Shown: positions 1 to 10,880 of the stretch, one piece after another
Layout of the letters: every line of letters begins with the position of its first letter
Numbering within the stretch: the stretch's first letter is position 1
Assembly (NCBI RefSeq): GCF_006345805.1
Contig: NW_021826548.1
Span: 1-10,880 of the forward strand
Length of the DNA: 10,880 nucleotides
From: Octopus sinensis
Lineage: Eukaryota
Direction of reading: 5' to 3'
The notes under the pieces: model-generated
Told to the model about the DNA's origin: nothing
The model's database searches: none
Seen by the model: the letters and a program-made list of their open reading frames with translations, nothing else
Made by a program: the position numbers and the translations under genes

Positions 1-1483
1 AGGGTACTTGAGATTATGTAATAGATTGCGTAATAAATTCGGTAATATATTATGCAATTTGGGGAAGTCTCTAGATTTAAGTATATGAGGGTACTTGAGA
101 TTATTAAATAAATTATGTAATAAATTGCGTAATACATAATGCTATTTGCGGAGTTCCCAAGATTTAGTGATACGAGGGTACTTGAGATTATGTAAAGATT
201 GCGTCATATATTGCGTAATATATTATGCAATTTGTGGAAGTCTCTAGATTTATGTATATGAGGGTACTTGAGATTATGAAATAGATTGCGTAATAAATTG
301 CGTAATATATTATGCAATTTTGGGAGGTGCCAAGATGTAAAGATACGAGGGTACTTGAGATTATGTAATAGATTGCGTAATAAATTGCGTAATATATTAT
401 GCAATTTGTGGAAGTCTCTAGATTTATGTATATGAGGGTACTTGAGATTATGTAATAGATTGCGTAATAAATTGCGTAATATATTATGCAATTTTGGGAT
501 GTGCCAAGATGTGAAGATACGAGGGTATTTGAGATTATGTAATAGTTTGCGTAATAAATTGCGTAATATATTATGTAATTTTGGGATGTGCCAAGATGTG
601 AAGATACGAGGGTACTTGAGATTATGTAATAGATTGCGTAATAAATTGCGTAATATATTATGAAATTTTGGATGTGCCAAGATGTGAAGATACGAGGGTA
701 CTTGAGATTATGTAATAGATTGCGTCATATATTGCGTAATATATTATGTATTTGTGGAACTCTCTAGAATTATTATATGAGGGTACTTGAGATTATGTAA
801 TAATTGCGTAATAAATTGCGTAATATATTATGCAATTTTGGGAGGTGCCAAGATGTGAAGATACGAGGGTACTTGAGATTATGTAATAGATTGCTAATAA
901 ATGCGTAATATATTATGCATTTTTGGGAGGTGCCAAGATATGAAGATATGAGAAAACTGAGATTATGTAATAGATTGCTTCATATATTGCGTAATTATAT
1001 TATAATTTGTGGAAGTCTCTATTTTAGTATATGAGGGTACTTGAGATTATTAAATAAATTATGTAATAAATTGCGTAATATATAATGCTATTTGGGGGAG
1101 TTCCCAAGATTTAGTGATACGAGGGTACTTGAGATTATGTAATTATGTAAAGATTGCGTCATATATTGCGTAATATATTATGCATTTGTGGAAGTCTCTA
1201 GATTTATGTATATGAGGGTTATTGAGATTATGTAATAGATTGCGTAATAAATTGCGTATTTGGAGTGGTCCCTTGAATGTGAAGATACGAGGTACTTGAG
1301 ATTATGTAATAGATTGCGTAATAAATTCGGTAATATATTATGCAATTTGGGGAAGTCTCTAGATTTAAGTATATGAGGGTACTTGAGATTATGTAATAGA
1401 TTGCGTAATAAATTGCGTAATATATTATGTAATTTGTGAAAGTCTCTAGATTTATGTATATGAGGGTCCTTGAGATTATGTAA
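1..1483. repeat. 87-bp tandem satellite, segment 1
   Basis: GAGGGTACTTGAGATTATGTAA recurs about every 87 bp. The ORF track shows a 29-aa periodicity (87 nt). Confidence 0.97.
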
Positions 1484-1757
1484 GATTGGAAAGTACAAGA
1501 AGCTCTCTGAACGGTATCTGTTCACGTCCCCTCGCCGTCGAGACTTCCGGCGTCATCGGCGAAAAGTCTCTTTCCTTTCTAAAAAGCTTGGCGCATGATC
1601 TCCCATAAACGGGGAGACCCACGCGAGTCCAAGTGGCTTTTCGAAAGGATTTCCTTGGCCATAGTACGTGGAAACTGTGTTTCCATTTACGATGCCGGGA
1701 ATTTGTAGTTAATAACTATTGTTAATTACATATAACTTTTAAAAATAAAAAAAAAAA
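1484..1757 (+). mobile_element. 5'-truncated 3' end of a CRE-like non-LTR retrotransposon, copy 1 (frameshifted)
   Basis: Near-identical to 6299-6576. Ends in poly(A) at ~1741-1757. Small indels break the frame. Confidence 0.8.
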
Positions 1758-2860
1758 GTTGCGTAATATATTATACAATTTGGGAGGTGCCAAGATGTGA
1801 AGATATGAGGATACTTGAGATTATATAATAGATTGCGTAATAAATTAGGTAATATATTATGTAATTTGGAGAGTCCCTTGATGTGAAGATACGAGGGTAT
1901 TTGAGATTATGTAATAGATGCGTAATAAATTGCGTAATTATAATTATGTAATTTTGGGAGGTGCCAAGATGTGAAGATACGAGGGTACTTGAGATTATGT
2001 AATAGATTGCGTAATAAATTGCGTAATATATTATGCAATTTTGGGAGGTCCCTTGATGTGAAGATACGAGGGTATTGAGATTATGTAATAGATTGCGTAA
2101 TAATTGCGTAATATATTATGCAATTTTGGGAGGTGCCAAGATGTGAAGATACGAATGTACTTGAGATTATGAATAGATTGCGTAATAAATGCGTAATATA
2201 TTATGCAATTTTGGGAGGTGCCAAGATGTGAAGATATGAGGATACTTGAGATTATTTAATAGATAGCGTCATATATTGCGTATAATTATATGTAATTTGT
2301 GGAAGTCTCTAGATTTATATATGAGGGTACTTGAGATATTAAATAAATTATGTAATAAATTGCTTAATATATAATGCTATTTGGAGTTCCCAAGATTTAG
2401 TGATACGAGGGTACTTGAGATTATGTAAAGATTGCGTCATATATTGCGTAATATATTATGCAATTTGGTGGAAGTCTCTAGATTTATGTATATGAGGGTA
2501 CTTGAAATTATGTAATAGATTGCGTAATAAATTGCGTAATATATTATGCATTTTGGGAGGTGCCAAGATGTGAAGATACGAGGGTACTTGAGATTATGTA
2601 ATAGATTGCGTAATAAATTGCGTAATATATTATGCAATTATGGGATGTGCCAAGATGTGAAGATACGAGGGTACTTGAGATTATGTAATAGAATGCGTCA
2701 TATATTGCGTAATATATTATGTAATTGTGGAAGTCTCTAGAATTATGTATATGAGGGTACTTGAGATTATGTAATAAATTGCGTAATAATTGCGTAATAT
2801 ATTATGCAATTTTGGGAGGTGCCAAGATGTGAAGATACGAGGGTACTTGAGATTATGTAA
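1758..2860. repeat. 87-bp tandem satellite, segment 2
   Basis: Same monomer. Includes an empty transposon target site (GAGA-TTATA-TAATAG, TTATA at 1821-1825). Confidence 0.97.
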
Positions 2861-3127
2861 GATTGGAAAGTACAAGAAGCTCTCTGAACGGTATCTGTTC
2901 ACTCCATCGCGTCGAAACTTACGGCGTCATCGGCGAAAAGTTCTCTTTCCTCTAAAAAAGCTTGCCGCATGATCTCCCATAAACGGGGAGACCCACGCGA
3001 GTCCAAGTGGCTTTTCGAAAGGATTTCCTTGGCCATAGTACGTGGAAACTGTGTTTCCATTTACGATGCCGGGATTTAGTTAGTTAATAACTATTTGTTA
3101 ATTAATATAACTTTTAAAAAAAAAAAA
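2861..3127 (+). mobile_element. 5'-truncated 3' end of a CRE-like non-LTR retrotransposon, copy 2 (frameshifted)
   Basis: Near-identical to 6299-6576, with the same 5' junction (TTATGTAA|GATTGG) and 3' junction (poly(A)|GTTGCGTAA). Confidence 0.8.
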
Positions 3128-6100
3128 GTTGCGTAATATATTATCAATTTGGGAGGTGCCAAGATGTGAAGATATGAGGATACTTGAGATTATATAATAG
3201 ATTGCGTAATAAATTAGGTAATATATTATGTAATTTGGAGAGGTCCCTTGATGTGAAGATACGAGGGTACTTGAGATTATGTAATAGATTGCGTAATAAA
3301 TTGCGTAATATATTATGCAATTTTGGGAGGTGCCAAGATGTGAAGATACGAGGGTACTTGAGATTATGTAATAGATTGCGTAATAAATTGCGTAATATAT
3401 TATGTAATTTGGAGAGGTCCCTTGATGTGAAGATACGAGGGTACTTGAAATTATGTAATTGATTGCGTAATAAGTTGCGTAATATATTATGCAATTTTAT
3501 GATGTGCCAAGATGTGAAGATACGAGGGTACTTGAGATTATGTAATAGATTGCGTAATAAATTAGGTAATATATTATGTAATTTGTGGAAGTCTCTAGAT
3601 TTAAGTATATGAGGGTACTTGAGATTATTAAATAAATTATGTAATAAATTGCGTAATACATAATGCTATTTGCGGAGTTCCCAAGATTTAGTGATACGAG
3701 GGTACTTGAGATTATGTAAAGATTGCGTCTATATTGCGTAATATATTATGCAATTTGTGGAAGTCTCTAGATTTATGTATATGAGGGTACTTGAGATATG
3801 AATAGATTGCGTAATAAATGCGTATATATTATGCAATTTTGGGAGGTGCCAAGATGTAAAGATACAGGGTACTTGAGATTATGTAATAGATTGCGTAATA
3901 AATGCGTAATATATTATGCAATTTGTGGAAGTCTCTAGATTTATGTATATGAGGGTACTTGAGATTATGTAATAGATGCGTATAAATTGCGTAATATATT
4001 ATGCAATTTTGGGATGTGCCAAGATGTGAAGATACGAGGGTATTTGAGATTATGTAATAGATTGCGTAATAAATTGCGTAATATATTATGTAATTGGGAG
4101 TTTGCCAAGATGTGAAGAACGAGGGTACTTGAGATTATGTAATAGATTGCGTAATAAATGCGTAATATATTATGAAATTTTGGGATGTGCCAAGATGTGA
4201 AGATACGAGGGTACTTGAGATATGTAATAGATTGCGTCATATATTGCGTAATATATTATGTAATTTGTGGAAGTCTCTAGAATTATGTATATGAGGGTAC
4301 TTGAGATTATGTAATAAATTGCGTAATAAATTGCGTAATAAATTGCGTAATATATTATGCAATTTTGGGAGGTGCCAAGATGTGAAGATACGAGGGTACT
4401 TGAGATTATGTAATAGATTGCGTAATAAATTGCGTAATATATTATGCAATTTTGGGAGGTGCCAAGATATGAAGATATGAGAAAACTTGAGATTATGTAA
4501 TAGATTGCTTCATATATTGCGTAATATATTATGTAATTTGTGGAAGTCTCTAGATTTAAGTATATGAGGGTACTTGAGATTATTAAATAAATTATGTAAT
4601 AAATTGCGTAATATATAATGCTATTTGGGGAGTTCCCAAGATTTAGTGATACGAGGGTACTTGAGATTATGTAAATTATGTAAAGATTGCGTCATATATT
4701 GCGTAATATTATGCAATTTGTGGAAGTCTCTAGATTATGTATATGAGGGTTATTGAGATTATGTAATAGATTGCGTATAAATTGCGTAATTTGGAGTGGT
4801 CCTAGATGTGAAGATACGAGGGTACTTGAGATTATGTAATAGATTGCGTAATAAATTCGGTAATATATTATGCAATTTGGGGAAGTCTCTAGATTTAAGT
4901 ATATGAGGGTACTTGAGATTATGTAATAGATTGCGTAATAAATTGCGTAATATATTATGTAATTTGTGAAAGTCTCTAGATTTATGTATATGAGGGTACT
5001 TGAGATTATGTAATAGATTGCGTAATAAATTGCGTAATATAATATGCAATTTGTGGAAGTCTCTAGATTTATGTATATGAGGGTACTTGAGACTATGTAA
5101 TAGATTGCGTAATATATTATGCAATTTTGGGAGGTGCCAAGATGTGAAGATACGAGGGTACTTGAGATTATGTAATAGATTGCGTCATATATTGCGTAAT
5201 ATATTATGTAATTTGTGAAAGTCTCTAGATTTATGTATATGAGGGTACTTGAGATTATGTAATAGATTGCGTAATAAATTGCGTAATATAATATGCAATT
5301 TTGGGAGGTGCCAAGATGTGAAGATACGAGGGTACTTGAGATTATGTAATAGATTGCGTAATAAATTCGGTAATATATTATGCAATTTGGGGAAGTCTCT
5401 AGATTTAAGTATATGAGGGTACTTGAGATTATTAAATAAATTATGTAATAAATTGCGTAATACATAATGCTATTGCGGAGTTCAAGATTTAGTGATACGA
5501 GGATACTTGAGATTATGTAAGATTGCGTCATATATTGCGTAATATATTATGCAATTTGTGGAAGTCTCTAGATTTATGTATATGAGGGTACTTGAGATTA
5601 TGTAATAGATTGCGTAATAATTGCTTAATATATTATGCAATTTTGGGAGGTGCCAAGATGTGAGATATGAGGATACTTGAGATTATTTAATAGATAGCGT
5701 CATATATTGCGTAATATATTATGTAATTTGTGGAAGTCTCTAGATGTATGTATGATGAGGTACTTGAGATTATTAAATAAATTATGTAATAAATTGCGTA
5801 ATATATAATGCTATTTGGGGAGTTCCCAAGATTTAGTGATACGAGGGTACTTGAGATTATGTAAAGATTGCGTCATATATTGCGTAATATATTATGCAAT
5901 TTGTGGAAGTCTCTAGATTTATGTATATGAGGGTACTTGAGATTATGTAATAGATTGCGTAATAAATTGCGTAATATATTATGCAATTTTGGGAGGTGCC
6001 AAGATGTGAAGATACGAGGGTACTTGAGATTATGTAATAGATTGCGTAATAAATTGCGTAATATATTATGCAATTTTGGGATGTGCCAAGATGTGAAGAT

Positions 6101-6298
6101 ACGAGGGTACTTGAGATTATGTAATAGATTGCGTCATATATTGCGTAATATATTATGTAATTTGTGGAAGTCTCTAGAATTATGTATATGAGGGTACTTG
6201 AGATTATGTAATAAATTGCGTAATAAATTGCGTAATATATTATGCAATTTTGGGAGGTGCCAAGATGTGAAGATACGAGGGTACTTGAGATTATGTAA
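3128..6298. repeat. 87-bp tandem satellite, segment 3
   Basis: Reference monomer 5929-6015: GAGGGTACTTGAGATTATGTAATAGATTGCGTAATAAATTGCGTAATATATTATGCAATTTTGGGAGGTGCCAAGATGTGAAGATAC. The next monomer starts at 6016. Confidence 0.97.
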
Positions 6299-6576
6299 GA
6301 TTGGAAAGTACAAGAAGCTCTCTGAACGGTATCTGTTCACTCCCATCGCCGTCGAAACTTCCGGCGTCATCGGCGAAAAGTCTCTTTCCTTTCTAAAAAA
6401 GCTTGGCCGCATGATCTCCCATAAACGGGGAGACCCACGCGAGTCCAAGTGGCTTTTCGAAAGGATTTCCTTGGCCATAGTACGTGGAAACTGTGTTTCC
6501 ATTTACGATGCCGGGAATTTAGTTAGTTAATAACTATTTGTTAATTACATATAACTTTTAAAAATAAAAAAAAAAA
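6299..6576 (+). mobile_element. 5'-truncated 3' end of a CRE-like non-LTR retrotransposon, copy 3 (best preserved)
   Basis: Open frame KIGKYKKLSERYLFTPIAVETSGVIGEKSLSFLKKLGRMISHKRGDPRESKWLFERISLAIVRGNCVSIYDAGNLVS* (stop 6528-6530). It fits the K..KY...Y.F.P.A.ET.G..G....FL..LG......R.S.AI.RGN pattern I recognise from the C-terminus of CRE-clade RLE retrotransposon proteins. A ~30-nt AT-rich UTR and a poly(A) tail follow. Family assignment is by motif recall, not by search. Confidence 0.85.
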
Positions 6577-6640
6577 GTTGCGTAATATATTATACAATTT
6601 TGGGAGGTGCCAAGATGTGAAGATATGAGGATACTTGAGA

Positions 6641-6645
6641 TTATA
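6641..6645 (+). repeat. Target-site duplication TTATA (partner at 8423-8427)
   Basis: Empty sites at 1821-1825 and 3190-3194 have a single TTATA in the same flanking context. Confidence 0.92.
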
Positions 6646-6679
6646 TGTCACAGTCCGAATAAACTACACGCCGAATAAT
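6646..6679 (+). repeat. Left terminal inverted repeat
   Basis: TGTCACAGTCCGAATAAACTACACGCCGAATAAT, containing two CCGAATAA direct repeats. Confidence 0.95.
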
Positions 6680-7095
6680 TACATTCTTTAATTTTACTGA
6701 AATTAAAAATTTACACAACAAAATGTTTAATTATTATAAAAATATGATTTTTAATGTAAAATTCATTAACCTTTTTTACTAATTTATATAAACAAAACCA
6801 ACCACACTCAATTTACGCAGTTAACTTATACGTTTGAATATTGTTAGTCCATTTTAGGTTATCCTAATAAATTTTCATATAAAATTTATCGTTAATTTAA
6901 ATAAAAAATTATTTTTATTAGGATTTATGAAAATTAATCAATTTTAGCTAATCGAGAAATATGAATTCCGTGTAACCGCTCACCGTCCTCCTTTTCGATA
7001 ACATAGAGATCATTTCTTCGCTCGACAACAATATACTTATTAACATCAAGTCCATCGTACAGCGATACTGCCGAACATTGGCATCGTTGTCCTGT

Positions 7096-7121
7096 CTAAA
7101 AATTAATTTGACGCTTGAGAC
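7096..7121 (-). other. Putative spliceosomal intron 5 (26 nt)
   Basis: AG|GTCTCAAGCGTCAAATTAATTTTTAG. It contains an in-frame TAA. Removal joins VGTTVLLR to QDNDAN. Confidence 0.65.
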
Positions 7122-7463
7122 CTTAAAAGCACAGTCGTTCCGACATTGATATTTTCTTCGTCGTATCTCCATTTTCTTTTTTCAATCATTTTTTCGCCAG
7201 CATAATTAAGTTTTCTAATGCACTTTCTCGTGCCTCTGATAATCCAGTTGAATCATAGGCTAAAAGTTTGCTCCATTCCCCCTTCATCAATCCTTCCAGG
7301 ATTTTCAACACCCATGAATATTAAAAAGGGATTTTTTTGTCGAAGAATGAATGCTGTTATTGTAATCATACACGATGTCCTTTATGCATTCGCGATATCG
7401 TCCAAAACAAATTTTGAGAAGAACTTGCCGACGATATCCAGCGTTTTAATGCTTTGATTAAAT

Positions 7464-7490
7464 CTACAAATCGATTTTTAAATCATTAAC
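7464..7490 (-). other. Putative spliceosomal intron 4 (27 nt)
   Basis: GTTAATGATTTAAAAATCGATTTGTAG. Removal plus one missing A restores the catalytic QGQVER-FNQ motif. Confidence 0.78.
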
Positions 7491-7730
7491 CTTCGACTTG
7501 CCTTGTACCCAAGGAGCACGAGGCCTCCCACGTACATGTTTTATACCATATTTCGTACATAGAGCATCCATTTGCGAATTGCAAAATCCCTTCCATTATC
7601 AGTGTGTAGAATAAGCGGAGGCCCGACATAATAAAAAATTCTTTGGAATAATCTGCGATTTCTTCAGAAGATTTGGTCACCGACAGTTCAAGCATTACAT
7701 ATTTGGAAAAAAATCCACAATTACCAAAAT

Positions 7731-7755
7731 CTATTTATTAACATTAAATTCATAC
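7731..7755 (-). other. Putative spliceosomal intron 3 (25 nt)
   Basis: TGG|GTATGAATTTAATGTTAATAAATAG. It contains an in-frame stop. Removal restores the conserved DGFSW-ILVIVD integrase strand exactly. Confidence 0.88.
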
Positions 7756-7879
7756 CCAGCTAAAGCCATCATTCAACGCCGAATATCTTCTGAGGTCAAT
7801 TAAATCCGCAATGTATCTGTCCCTACATCTCCTTGCAATGTTGGCGTATCGGAGGCTTCGTAGACAATAATTTTTTCGA

Positions 7880-7907
7880 CTAAGAATATTACTAAAAGGA
7901 TTATTAC
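7880..7907 (-). other. Putative spliceosomal intron 2 (28 nt)
   Basis: CAG|GTAATAATCCTTTTAGTAATATTCTTAG. Removal joins CAFCQ to SKKLLSTKPPIR. Confidence 0.75.
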
Positions 7908-8024
7908 CTGACAGAAAGCACAATTCGAAATCACCTTAGAGATTTCTTCTCTATTCAATCCATAATAGAGATTTCTTAATTTCGAAAAAGCGGTCTCTCC
8001 CAAAGTGTTATAGTTATGTTCCGC

Positions 8025-8047
8025 CTAATTTTATTTATTAAGTTGAC
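8025..8047 (-). other. Putative spliceosomal intron 1 (23 nt)
   Basis: GTCAACTTAATAAATAAAATTAG. AT-rich with GT-AG ends. Removal joins KCVE to AEHNY in frame. Confidence 0.7.
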
Positions 8048-8388
8048 CTCAACGCACTTAAGCTTTAATTCGATTTCATCTTCACAGAAAAAACGCAATT
8101 AAGCCCATTTTTTCGAAAATATGTTTTTCCCTTTTCAAAATGGAAATTCTTTCCCAATTTTGTGAGCCTGTAATCGCTCATGCCGCTCGATTGACGATGT
8201 ATCAAAGTTGGAGTCTTCATTTCTTTGATTTTGTCCAGTGTTTCCTTAATAATCTCACTACACGCATGTTTCACGCTTTTTTAAATAAAAAATAATAATG
8301 TGATTCTACTAAAATAATAATCAATTATTGATTTTTTTTCATCTAATTTTTAGATTTCTAATTTTTTCAGCCATTGTGACAAGTGTAG

Positions 8389-8422
8389 ATTATTCGGCGT
8401 GTATTTTATTCGGACTGTCACA
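8389..8422 (-). repeat. Right terminal inverted repeat
   Basis: Reverse complement TGTGACAGTCCGAATAAAATACACGCCGAATAAT, 2 mismatches to the left TIR. Confidence 0.95.
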
Positions 8423-10670
8423 TTATATAATAGATTGCGTAATAAATTAGGTAATATATTATGTAATTTGGAGAGGTCCCTTGATGTGAAGATACGAGGG
8501 TACTTGAGATTATGTAATAGATTGCGTAATAAATTGCGTAATATATTATGCAATTATGGGAGGTGCCAAGATGTGAAGATACGAGGGTACTTGAGATTAG
8601 TAATAGATTGCGTAATAAATTGCGTAATATATTATGTAATTTGGAGAGGTCCCTTGATGTGAAGATACGAGGGTACTTGAAATTTGTAATTGATTGCGTA
8701 ATAAGTTGCGTAAATATATGCAATTTTATGATGTGCAATGTGAAGATACAGGGTACTTGAGATTATGTAATAGATTGCGTAATAAATTATGTAATATATT
8801 ATGTAATTGTGGAAGTCTCTAGATTTAAGTATATGAGGGTACTTGAGATTATGTAATAAATTGCGTAATAAATTGCGTAATATATTATGCAATTTTGGGA
8901 GGTGCCAAGATGTGAAGATACGAGGGTACTTGAGATTATGTAATAGATTGCGTAATAAATTGCGTAATATATTATGCAATTTTGGGAGGTGCCAAGATGT
9001 GAAGATATGAGGATACTCGAGATTATTTAATAGATAGCGTCATATATTGCGTAATATATTATGTAATTTGTGGAAGTCTCTAGATTTATGTATATGAGGG
9101 TACTTGAGATTATTAAATAAATTATGTAATAAATTGCTTAATATATAATGCTATTTGGGGAGTTCCCAAGATTTAGTGATACGAGGGTACTTGAGATTAT
9201 GTAAAGATTGCGTCATATATTGCGTAATATATTATGCAATTTGTGGAAGTCTCTAGATTTATGTATATGAGGGTACTTGAGATTATGTAATAGATTGCGT
9301 AATAAATTGCGTAATATATTATGCAATTTTGGGAGGTGCCAAGATGTGAAGATACGAGGGTACTTGAGATTATGTAATAGATTGCGTAATAAATTGCGTA
9401 ATATATTATGCAATTTTGGGATGTGCCAAGATGTGAAGATACGAGGGTACTTGAGATTATGTAATAGATTGCGTCATATATTGCGTAATATATTATGTAA
9501 TTTGGAAGTTTCTAGAATTATGTATATGAGGGTACTGAGATTATGTAATTAATTGCGTAATAAATTGCGTAATAATTATGCAATTTTGGGAGGTGCCAAG
9601 ATGTGAAGATACGAGGGTACTTGAGATTATGTAATAGATTGCGTAATAATTGCGTAATATATTATGCATTTTTTGGGGTGCCAAGATATGAAGATATGAG
9701 AAAACTTGAGATTATGTAATAGATTGCGTAATAAATTAGGTATATATTATGTAATTTATAGAGGTACCTTGATGTGAAGATACGAGGATACTTGAGATTA
9801 TGTAATAGATTGCATAATAAATTAGGTAATATATTATGCAATTTTGGGAGGTGCTAAGATGTGAAGATACGAGGGTACTTGAGATTATGTAATAGATTGC
9901 TTCATATATTGCGTAATATATTATGTAATTTGTGGAAGTCTCTAGATTTAAGTATATGAGGGTACTTGAGATTATTAAATAAATTATGTAATAAATTGCG
10001 TAATATATAATGCTATTTGGGGAGTTCCCAAGATTTAGTGATACGAGGGTACTTGAGATTATGTAAATTATGTAAAGATTGCGTCATATATTGCGTAATA
10101 TATTATGCAATTTGTGGAAGTCTCTAGATTTATGTATATGAGGGTTATTGAGATTATGTAATAGATTGCGTAATAAATTGCGTAATTTGGAGTGGTCCCT
10201 TGATGTGAAGATACGAGGGTACTTGAGATTATGTAAAGATTGCGTCATATATTGCCTAATATATTATGCAATTTGTGGAAGTCTCTAGATTTATGTATAT
10301 GAGGGTACTTGAAATTATGTAATAGATTGCGTAATAAATTGCGTAATATATTATGCAATTTTGGGAGGTGCCAAGATGTGAAGATACGAGGGTACTTGAG
10401 ATTATGTAATAGATTGCGTAATAAATTGCGTAATATATTATGCAATTTTGGGATGTGCCAAGATGTGAAGATACGAGGGTACTTGAGATTATGTAATAGA
10501 TTGCGTCATATATTGCGTAATATATTATGTAATTTTGTGAAGTCTCTAGAATTATGTATATGAGGGTACTTGAGATTATGTAATAAAGTGCGTAATAAAT
10601 TGCGTAATATATTATGCAATTTTGGGAGGTTCCAAGATGTGAAGATACGAGGGTACTTGAGATTATGTAA
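8423..10670. repeat. 87-bp tandem satellite, segment 4
   Basis: Same monomer. It resumes exactly where the monomer at 6577-6645 was interrupted. Confidence 0.97.
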
Positions 10671-10880
10671 GATTGGAAAGTACAGAAGCTCTCGGAACGG
10701 TATCTGTTCACTCCCATCGCCGTCGAAACTTCCGGCGTCATCGGCGAAAAGTCTCTTTCCTTTCTAAAAAAGCTTGCCGCATGATCTCCCATAAACGGGG
10801 AGACCCACGCGAGTCCAAGTGGCTTTTCGAAAGGATTTCCTTGGCCATAGTACGTGGAAACTGTGTTTCCATTTACGATG
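10671..10880 (+). mobile_element. 5'-truncated 3' end of a CRE-like non-LTR retrotransposon, copy 4 (cut by window edge)
   Basis: Near-identical to 6299-6510 with the same 5' junction TTATGTAA|GATTGGAAAG. Confidence 0.8.

Follow-up and report, generated by a model that had tools for sequence, protein, structure and literature searches.

The window, by which we mean the whole 10,880-nt stretch of DNA that was analysed, carries an array of an 87-bp satellite with higher-order structure (plus strand, positions 1-6645, continuing at 8423-10670), into which an element of 1,777 bp is inserted at positions 6646-8422. The element begins with TGT, ends with ACA and is flanked on either side by TTATA, the left copy of this target-site duplication (TSD) lying at 6641-6645 and the right copy at 8423-8427, both on the plus strand. 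Its terminal inverted repeats (TIRs) are 34 bp in length: the repeat on the 3' side of the gene described below, TGTCA..., lies at 6646-6679 (plus strand) and contains the 8-mer CCGAATAA twice, and the repeat on the 5' side, TGTGA... (minus strand, 8389-8422), matches it at 32 of 34 positions. Single TTATA sequences, corresponding to empty sites, were observed at 1821-1825 and 3190-3194 in two equivalent satellite monomers of the window; the element is therefore a true insertion and, as these monomers occupy corresponding places in one and the same higher-order repeat, one that is younger than that satellite amplification. The first-pass annotation of this DNA had described the insert in the same terms, and its length, ends, inverted repeats, duplication and satellite target were all found again, in agreement with the empty sites. 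The satellite is strongly G-skewed, and its monomers, which alternate in type, contain AATTTTGG or AATTTGTGG, sequences that we take to resemble Sm-binding sites; a search of window positions 5800-9000 against Rfam gave no match. A further array of this satellite was seen elsewhere in the same assembly (contig C3074; L135:790-3134), interrupted there by other repeats that form an insert of 2.3 kb, coding-like in part.

The insert contains a gene on the minus strand for which our homolog-guided model predicts six exons, from an ATG at 8267 to a TAA at 6934, and a protein of ~405 aa; the choice of start codon rests on alignment to a database protein, P0003. Read in order, the minus-strand motifs are CxxC, ADLID, HTDNG, the catalytic E, YNNSIHS and HISRL, as had been proposed from the first reading of the sequence; the SPF which that reading placed after YNNSIHSST was not borne out, since copies with an in-frame A-run read KKIPF at this point. 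The exon at 7908-8024 (minus strand) encodes an H2C2 zinc finger (H-x3-H...CxxC), and the catalytic core lies at 7491-7809 (minus strand), with its aspartates in ADLID (7795-7809) and HTDNG (7593-7606) and its glutamate at 7491-7499; the second D and the E are spaced by 35 residues, as measured in another copy, L002. Single exons of L002 matched Pfam Integrase_H2C2 (E 2e-6, on the exon equivalent to 7908-8024) and rve (E 9e-16), both above the cut-offs, whereas the broken pieces of the window copy alone reached E 0.005 for rve, short of the Pfam cut-off, so that the profile check suggested by the first-pass annotation succeeded on L002 exons and failed on the window itself. Searches of the ESM Atlas returned generic integrase clusters only.

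That an integrase is hidden here behind out-of-frame scraps in the open reading frame track had been recognized from the outset, but the cause was missed: the reading frame is broken up by five inserts of 25-30 nt, likely introns, and by what are likely read errors. All five inserts are of GT-AG type on the minus strand. Intron 1 (8025-8047, phase 0; 23 nt in the window, 25 in L002) directly precedes the HHCC zinc finger, intron 2 (7880-7907, phase 0; 28 and 30 nt, respectively) directly follows the CxxC, intron 3 (7731-7755, phase 0) is 25 nt in length, intron 4 (7464-7490, phase 2; 27 and 26 nt) directly follows the catalytic E, and intron 5 (7096-7121, phase 2) is 26 nt in length; in L002, introns 1-5 are 25, 30, 25, 26 and 26 nt, all GT-AG. 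With the five inserts removed, L002 aligned with P0003 from residue 1 to 411, with 186 of 404 residues identical (46%). When the ends of the gaps were left free in this comparison, 3 of the 5 fell exactly at GT..AG and the other 2 within 4 nt. A model that allowed frameshifts only, with no introns, was rejected on its score (697, vs 884 with introns). Unguided longest-ORF splicing recovered introns 1-3 but, where homopolymers had slipped, chose introns that are false, and on the 5' side a possible one of 36 nt; the homolog-guided models were preferred to it.

The inserts are not peculiar to the window copy. We compared 14 loci, from about a dozen families, of the clade that contains the window family, and found introns at the same codons (numbered here by P0003). 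The codon 158 insert (intron 3) was present in all 14 loci; that at codon 239 in 13, the fourteenth, L091 (C12459:384326-388150), having an apparent in-frame GC-AG insert of 27 nt; that at codon 76 in 10 of the 11 loci covering the position; and that at codon 116 in 8 of 13, with 3 precise absences and 2 ambiguous cases. Two positions were restricted to few families, codon 356 (2 of 12 loci, in two families) and codon 194 (1 of 14, in one family). Wherever an intron was missing from a locus of this clade, the absence was precise (+0 nt). Measurement of 42 introns in 12 loci gave lengths of 22-31 nt (median 26), with interiors only ~50% alike. Outside the clade, none of the shared positions carries an intron in L077, L087 or L096, and the single intron of L099 (24 nt) is a different one. 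Between families, pN was 0.20-0.30 and pS 0.58-0.84; dN/dS was 0.20 for the pair L082/L100, pS being saturated for three other family pairs, and it was 0.5-0.95 among the close copies compared. Judged from these ratios, purifying selection acts on the coding sequence in comparisons between families. These observations support, rather than prove, the view that the five inserts of 25-30 nt are likely spliced introns.

Relative to L002, the window copy shows 3 substitutions and 32 indel bases, of which 26 are deletions, all single-base. It keeps all five inserts and has ~14 frameshifts besides, which are most likely long-read sequencing errors; 12 of 13 other copies compared were likewise indel-dominated or else nearly identical. 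In L002, one -1 slip in an A-run remains after removal of the introns, at a site where the run is of in-frame length in many other copies. The first-pass description of the element as complete thus holds for its ends, whereas the coding integrity of the window copy is too noisy to read.

Because none of the 30 loci of the window family combines full length with an absence of frameshifts (L026+L027 is frameshift-free but carries an insertion), one may ask whether the family is dead or non-autonomous, its inserts being spliced poorly or not at all and its copies being moved in trans by an intronless relative. Such relatives do occur, some of them on the same contigs, yet their TIRs differ from those of the window family. 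A public run, X1, of unrecorded library kind, bears on the question in both directions: one 238-nt contig (depth 2.3), the single spliced form seen, agrees with L002 at every aligned base, the 26 nt of intron 5 being precisely missing, whereas other contigs of the run keep intron 4. The inserts, moreover, are GT-AG, are sized like the introns of other genes on the unplaced contigs (below) and occupy identical codons across diverged families, with precise absences, and selection appears to have preserved the coding sequence between these families; after splicing, two loci of families related to that of the window, L081 and L090, are intact. We consider a dead or non-autonomous family unlikely on these grounds.

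To place the element among its copies, we searched the assembly that contains the window (G000; 2.7 Gb), which comprises the chromosome-scale sequences C1-C30 plus thousands of small contigs. At least 16 near-full-length loci with 95-100% identity were found by DNA search, plus deleted or interrupted copies; as 40 of 221 candidates were scored, the copy number is a lower bound. Both ends were kept in 24 of 30 loci, and 17 of these 24 had an exact, AT-rich 5-bp TSD, which was missing in the other 7. Allowing for shared flanks in two pairs of loci, there were 22 independent sites, 15 of them with an exact 5-bp TSD, as compared with 15 exact 5-bp duplications among 552 cross-paired flanks used as a control; the duplications at the ends of the copies are not due to chance. 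The flanks of the copies are mostly unrelated to one another, and since independent sites have their own TSDs, the mobile unit runs from TIR to TIR. Thus the genome-wide search for copies and TSD lengths that the first-pass annotation had advised revealed a real, young and recently multiplied transposon family. Three of its copies carry nested insertions, of ~1.1 kb (L074:2501-3601), ~2.0 kb (L073:2565-4596) and ~0.7 kb (L075:1622-2311).

These results also bear on the idea that the gene is an integrase fragment of an LTR retrotransposon or a Polinton and not part of a self-contained DNA transposon. The domains are common to Gypsy integrases, and some database relatives of the protein are labelled Pol or Gag-Pol. 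However, the repeated unit stops at the TIRs, a single gene fills it from ATG to stop, and we found no LTR, gag, RT, polB or capsid genes within it, in keeping with the absence of RT and LTR reported in the first-pass annotation; copies embedded in LTR- or RT-bearing elements, which that annotation had named as evidence to the contrary, did not appear, the copies ending at TIRs with TSDs of their own. Eight further loci of related families in the assembly likewise have TGT...ACA ends, with TIRs of 22-73 bp around units of 1.3-2.2 kb; six have 5-bp TSDs and two, which represent one duplicated site, have 6-bp TSDs. An origin as a retrotransposon or Polinton fragment, already largely refuted, therefore appears extremely improbable.

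By its described features the window family is Ginger2/TDD-like: compact, with a 5-bp TSD and a gene split by micro-introns. It is set beside Ginger2 on those features and not by Ginger2 reference proteins in the trees. As characterized by Bao, Kapitonov and Jurka 2010 (PMC2836005), Ginger2/TDD elements have TGTNR termini, of which TGTGA and TGTCA are examples here; an H2C2 finger with a DDE core, found here as a D-D35-E core and as Pfam matches above cut-off on L002; AT-rich targets; and neither GPY/F nor YPYY motifs, which a pattern search of the L002 model also failed to find. Their TSDs are of 4 bp in animals and of 5 bp, as in the window element, in Dictyostelium TDD-4 and TDD-5; the Ginger2 table of that paper shows no introns, as opposed to five micro-introns here (PMC2836005). 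The Ginger2 target consensus RTATAY was not evident at the TSDs of the window family. In size, the window element (1.8 kb, with 34-bp TIRs) falls outside the range described for autonomous Ginger2/TDD families (2.75-6.7 kb, the smallest of 2,751 bp, with TIRs of 45-297 bp; PMC2836005), which is descriptive and not diagnostic, and it is shorter than a Bombyx element of Ginger2 type (2,442 bp; PMC3845634); the related families of the same assembly, with TIRs of 22-73 bp and lengths up to 2.2 kb, are similarly placed.

Other groups agree less well. Ginger1 shares TGT ends, H2C2 and DDE domains and a transposase with 0-4 introns, but its TSDs are 4-bp CCGG/CCGT, its protein has YPYY and GPY/F motifs, and an OTU or Ulp1 domain is usually present (PMC2836005), none of which we found in the window element by TSD tally or by motif and Pfam searches. 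GingerRoot/IS3EU and IS481EU are also eukaryotic DNA transposons with an integrase-like DDE, the latter with short TIRs and TGT ends; both are described as lacking the HHCC finger, with 6-bp TSDs and mostly TA...TA ends in GingerRoot/IS3EU and with TSDs of 4, 15 or 24 bp in IS481EU (PMC6839031, PMC10045372), and the window element, with its finger, TGT...ACA ends and 5-bp TSD, conforms to neither. The first-pass annotation had likened the wording of the protein to KRBA2/SCAND3, and database relatives of the transposase do bear these names; the two share a Ginger2-derived integrase core with it, but are described as domesticated genes of mammals, present in single copy and carrying KRAB or SCAN domains (PMC3575427, Llorens 2012), whereas the window element is mobile, multicopy and has neither domain. 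The initial identification as a Ginger-like TIR transposon with a retroviral-type integrase can accordingly be narrowed to Ginger2/TDD, as distinct from Ginger1, GingerRoot and IS481EU; it also missed the probable owner of the DNA.

All 50 exact TIR matches lie on small unplaced contigs, none on C1-C30, and C1-C30 likewise hold none of the 100 satellite matches listed out of 162 (apparently ordered by contig, from C3019). A ~275-bp A-tailed LINE fragment occurs four times within the satellite of the window (~1484-1757, ~2861-3127, 6299-6577 and 10671-10880); that at 6299-6577 (plus strand) is the 3' end, with A-tail, of a non-LTR retrotransposon. None of its 40 scored matches lies on C1-C30, and the fragment is 95-99% identical to copies on micro-intron contigs that also hold the transposon, which links the window contig to the contigs of a putative parasite, where the longer element has many dispersed copies. 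One copy, L110, has an open frame of 487 codons, which gave no match in Pfam; from its Cys/His and PD motifs we take it to be an RLE-type non-LTR retrotransposon.

Housekeeping genes on several of the unplaced contigs are split by very short introns: EFTUD2 has 16 (23-48 nt) and EF-2 has 11 (19-32 nt), and contig C12467 holds transposon copy L004 plus an EF-G gene with short introns. On C8460, C12600 and C9737, where transposon copies are present as well, short gaps interrupt the genes of the actin family, whereas the first actin intron on chromosome-scale C2 is ~2 kb. Introns of Dicyema have a median length of 27 nt (PMC6543705), and dicyemids, which are kidney parasites of cephalopods (PMC7710466, PMC12953835), are listed with myxobolids as the only animals with introns of less than 30 nt (PMC13644364). 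One 18S gene of the assembly is 1,667 nt in length, vs ~2,600 nt for the others, and matches the dicyemid primers R2 and F3 (PMC6778094, supplement) at 23 of 23 and 20 of 22 positions, the other 11 loci having at least 7 mismatches; the in-silico product is 1,472 bp as compared with a published fragment of 1,330 bp, and the contig in question, C1618, has no physical link to any element-bearing contig. Because of the micro-intron genes, the primer matches, the restriction of copies to unplaced contigs and the known intron lengths of dicyemids, the likely owner of the element, the satellite and the window contig is a co-assembled dicyemid parasite and not the chromosome-scale host. A myxozoan or ascetosporean owner was considered and dropped after the 18S primer comparison and a protein search with a piece of EFTUD2, which gave animal matches only, molluscs first, at just 69-74%. 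A chromosomal locus considered as the host EFTUD2, L036, proved not to be the orthologue.

Host satellites often remain unplaced. This, together with the presence of the window in the host assembly and the restriction of the satellite count to 100 of 162 matches, could be taken to mean that the element belongs to the chromosome-scale host, where it decayed by frameshifts within an unplaced satellite. Against a host origin, however, stand the absence of TIR, scored LINE-fragment and listed satellite matches from C1-C30, the near-identity of the LINE fragment to copies on micro-intron contigs, and the ratio of 3 substitutions to 32 indel bases relative to L002, which is not a pattern of neutral decay; we regard it as very improbable. 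Unplaced contigs including C1794, C8460, C9082, C12459-C12468, C12597-C12603 and C1618 would make up a large share of the likely dicyemid genome, with contigs up to at least 1.2 Mb. Such a co-assembled fraction is both a usable resource and a contamination risk.

In the aggregate, we hold with considerable confidence that the window contains a recently multiplied, 1.8-kb TIR transposon of Ginger2/TDD type, probably of a co-assembled dicyemid, whose integrase-type gene is likely expressed through splicing of five 25-30-nt introns and whose protein would cut at the TGT...ACA ends and paste into AT-rich DNA. Splicing would yield the ~405-aa H2C2 and D-D35-E protein. By analogy with the Ginger/integrase family (PMC2836005), this protein would bind the TIRs, and the CA-3' ends would be freed and joined to AT-rich DNA with a 5-bp stagger. 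The element would in this way be cut out at its TGT...ACA ends and pasted elsewhere; the window copy landed in one unit of the already amplified satellite. In the open literature, as distinct from Repbase, Dfam and subscription papers, we found no report of Ginger-type elements in dicyemids, nor anything at odds with the first-pass suggestion that the family may be undescribed. Short inverted-repeat elements have reportedly been noted in Dicyema. The main text of the D. japonicum genome paper, apart from its repeat supplements, contains no match for Ginger or integrase.

A protein search of the assembly gave 114 matches; 101 of 3,001 candidates were scored, and distant relatives on host chromosomes may lie beyond those. 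Named database relatives of the transposase are mostly microsporidian, the closest being from Pseudoloma (P0138), Dictyocoela (P0005, P0134, P0136, P0139), Nematocida (P0133) and Cucumispora (P0146); they are known here as proteins only, and interleave with lineages of the assembly in all three trees. In one other microsporidian, Anncaliia, Ginger elements have been named on the rve domain only, as far as the account in PMC5751038 goes. In a FastTree analysis of 92 rows, from which nine distant rows of the first tree were dropped and short fragments, P0007 and P0143 left out, the 14 intron-rich loci formed one clade (support 99). With IQ-TREE (LG+G4, 30 rows), the 9 intron-rich loci included were again a clade (85/98), which joined P0003, P0138, P0135, P0137 and P0161 at 95/98, and a single clade of all 12 rows from the assembly was rejected (p-AU 1e-7); the first, quick tree had placed P0137 inside the intron-rich clade. 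The tree results therefore define at least four lineages of the assembly interleaved with microsporidian ones. Two octopus-labelled database proteins, P0143 ('KRAB-A domain-containing protein 2-like') and P0007 ('uncharacterized'), belong to the transposase clade; in P0143, intron 3 is read through and accounts for nine additional residues.

Dicyemids are on record as hosts of microsporidia (PMC4150386, citing Czaker 1997), a group between which and animals transposons are exchanged (PMC4202319). The presence of lineages with 0, 1 or 3-5 introns suggests repeated transfer followed by intron gain, this being the simplest reading of trees that are unrooted and include database proteins that may be spliced products; alternatively, the pattern may reflect old vertical diversity with loss of introns. 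We put forward, tentatively and as something short of probable, a fuller history along the lines of transfer and gain: the dicyemid was invaded several times by a compact Ginger2-like lineage with 5-bp TSDs shared with microsporidia, hyperparasites of dicyemids, and host-type introns of 22-31 nt were then gained stepwise, two lineages having none, another a single one and the large radiation 3-5, with late, family-specific gains at codon 356 in two families and at codon 194 in one.

The finding would extend the known repeats of the phylum, for which LINE types are the only ones named in the main text of the genome paper (PMC6736024), by a radiation of DNA transposons, and it shows that a host assembly holds a large parasite fraction, two public proteins of the transposase clade (P0007 and P0143) carrying the octopus label. 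It also bears on how introns of less than 30 nt arise: transposase families in which such introns are either there or precisely missing, together with intronless relatives, make gain versus loss directly testable. If the history of repeated invasion is true, these mobile elements would record, as a time series, the de novo gain of micro-introns in an animal.
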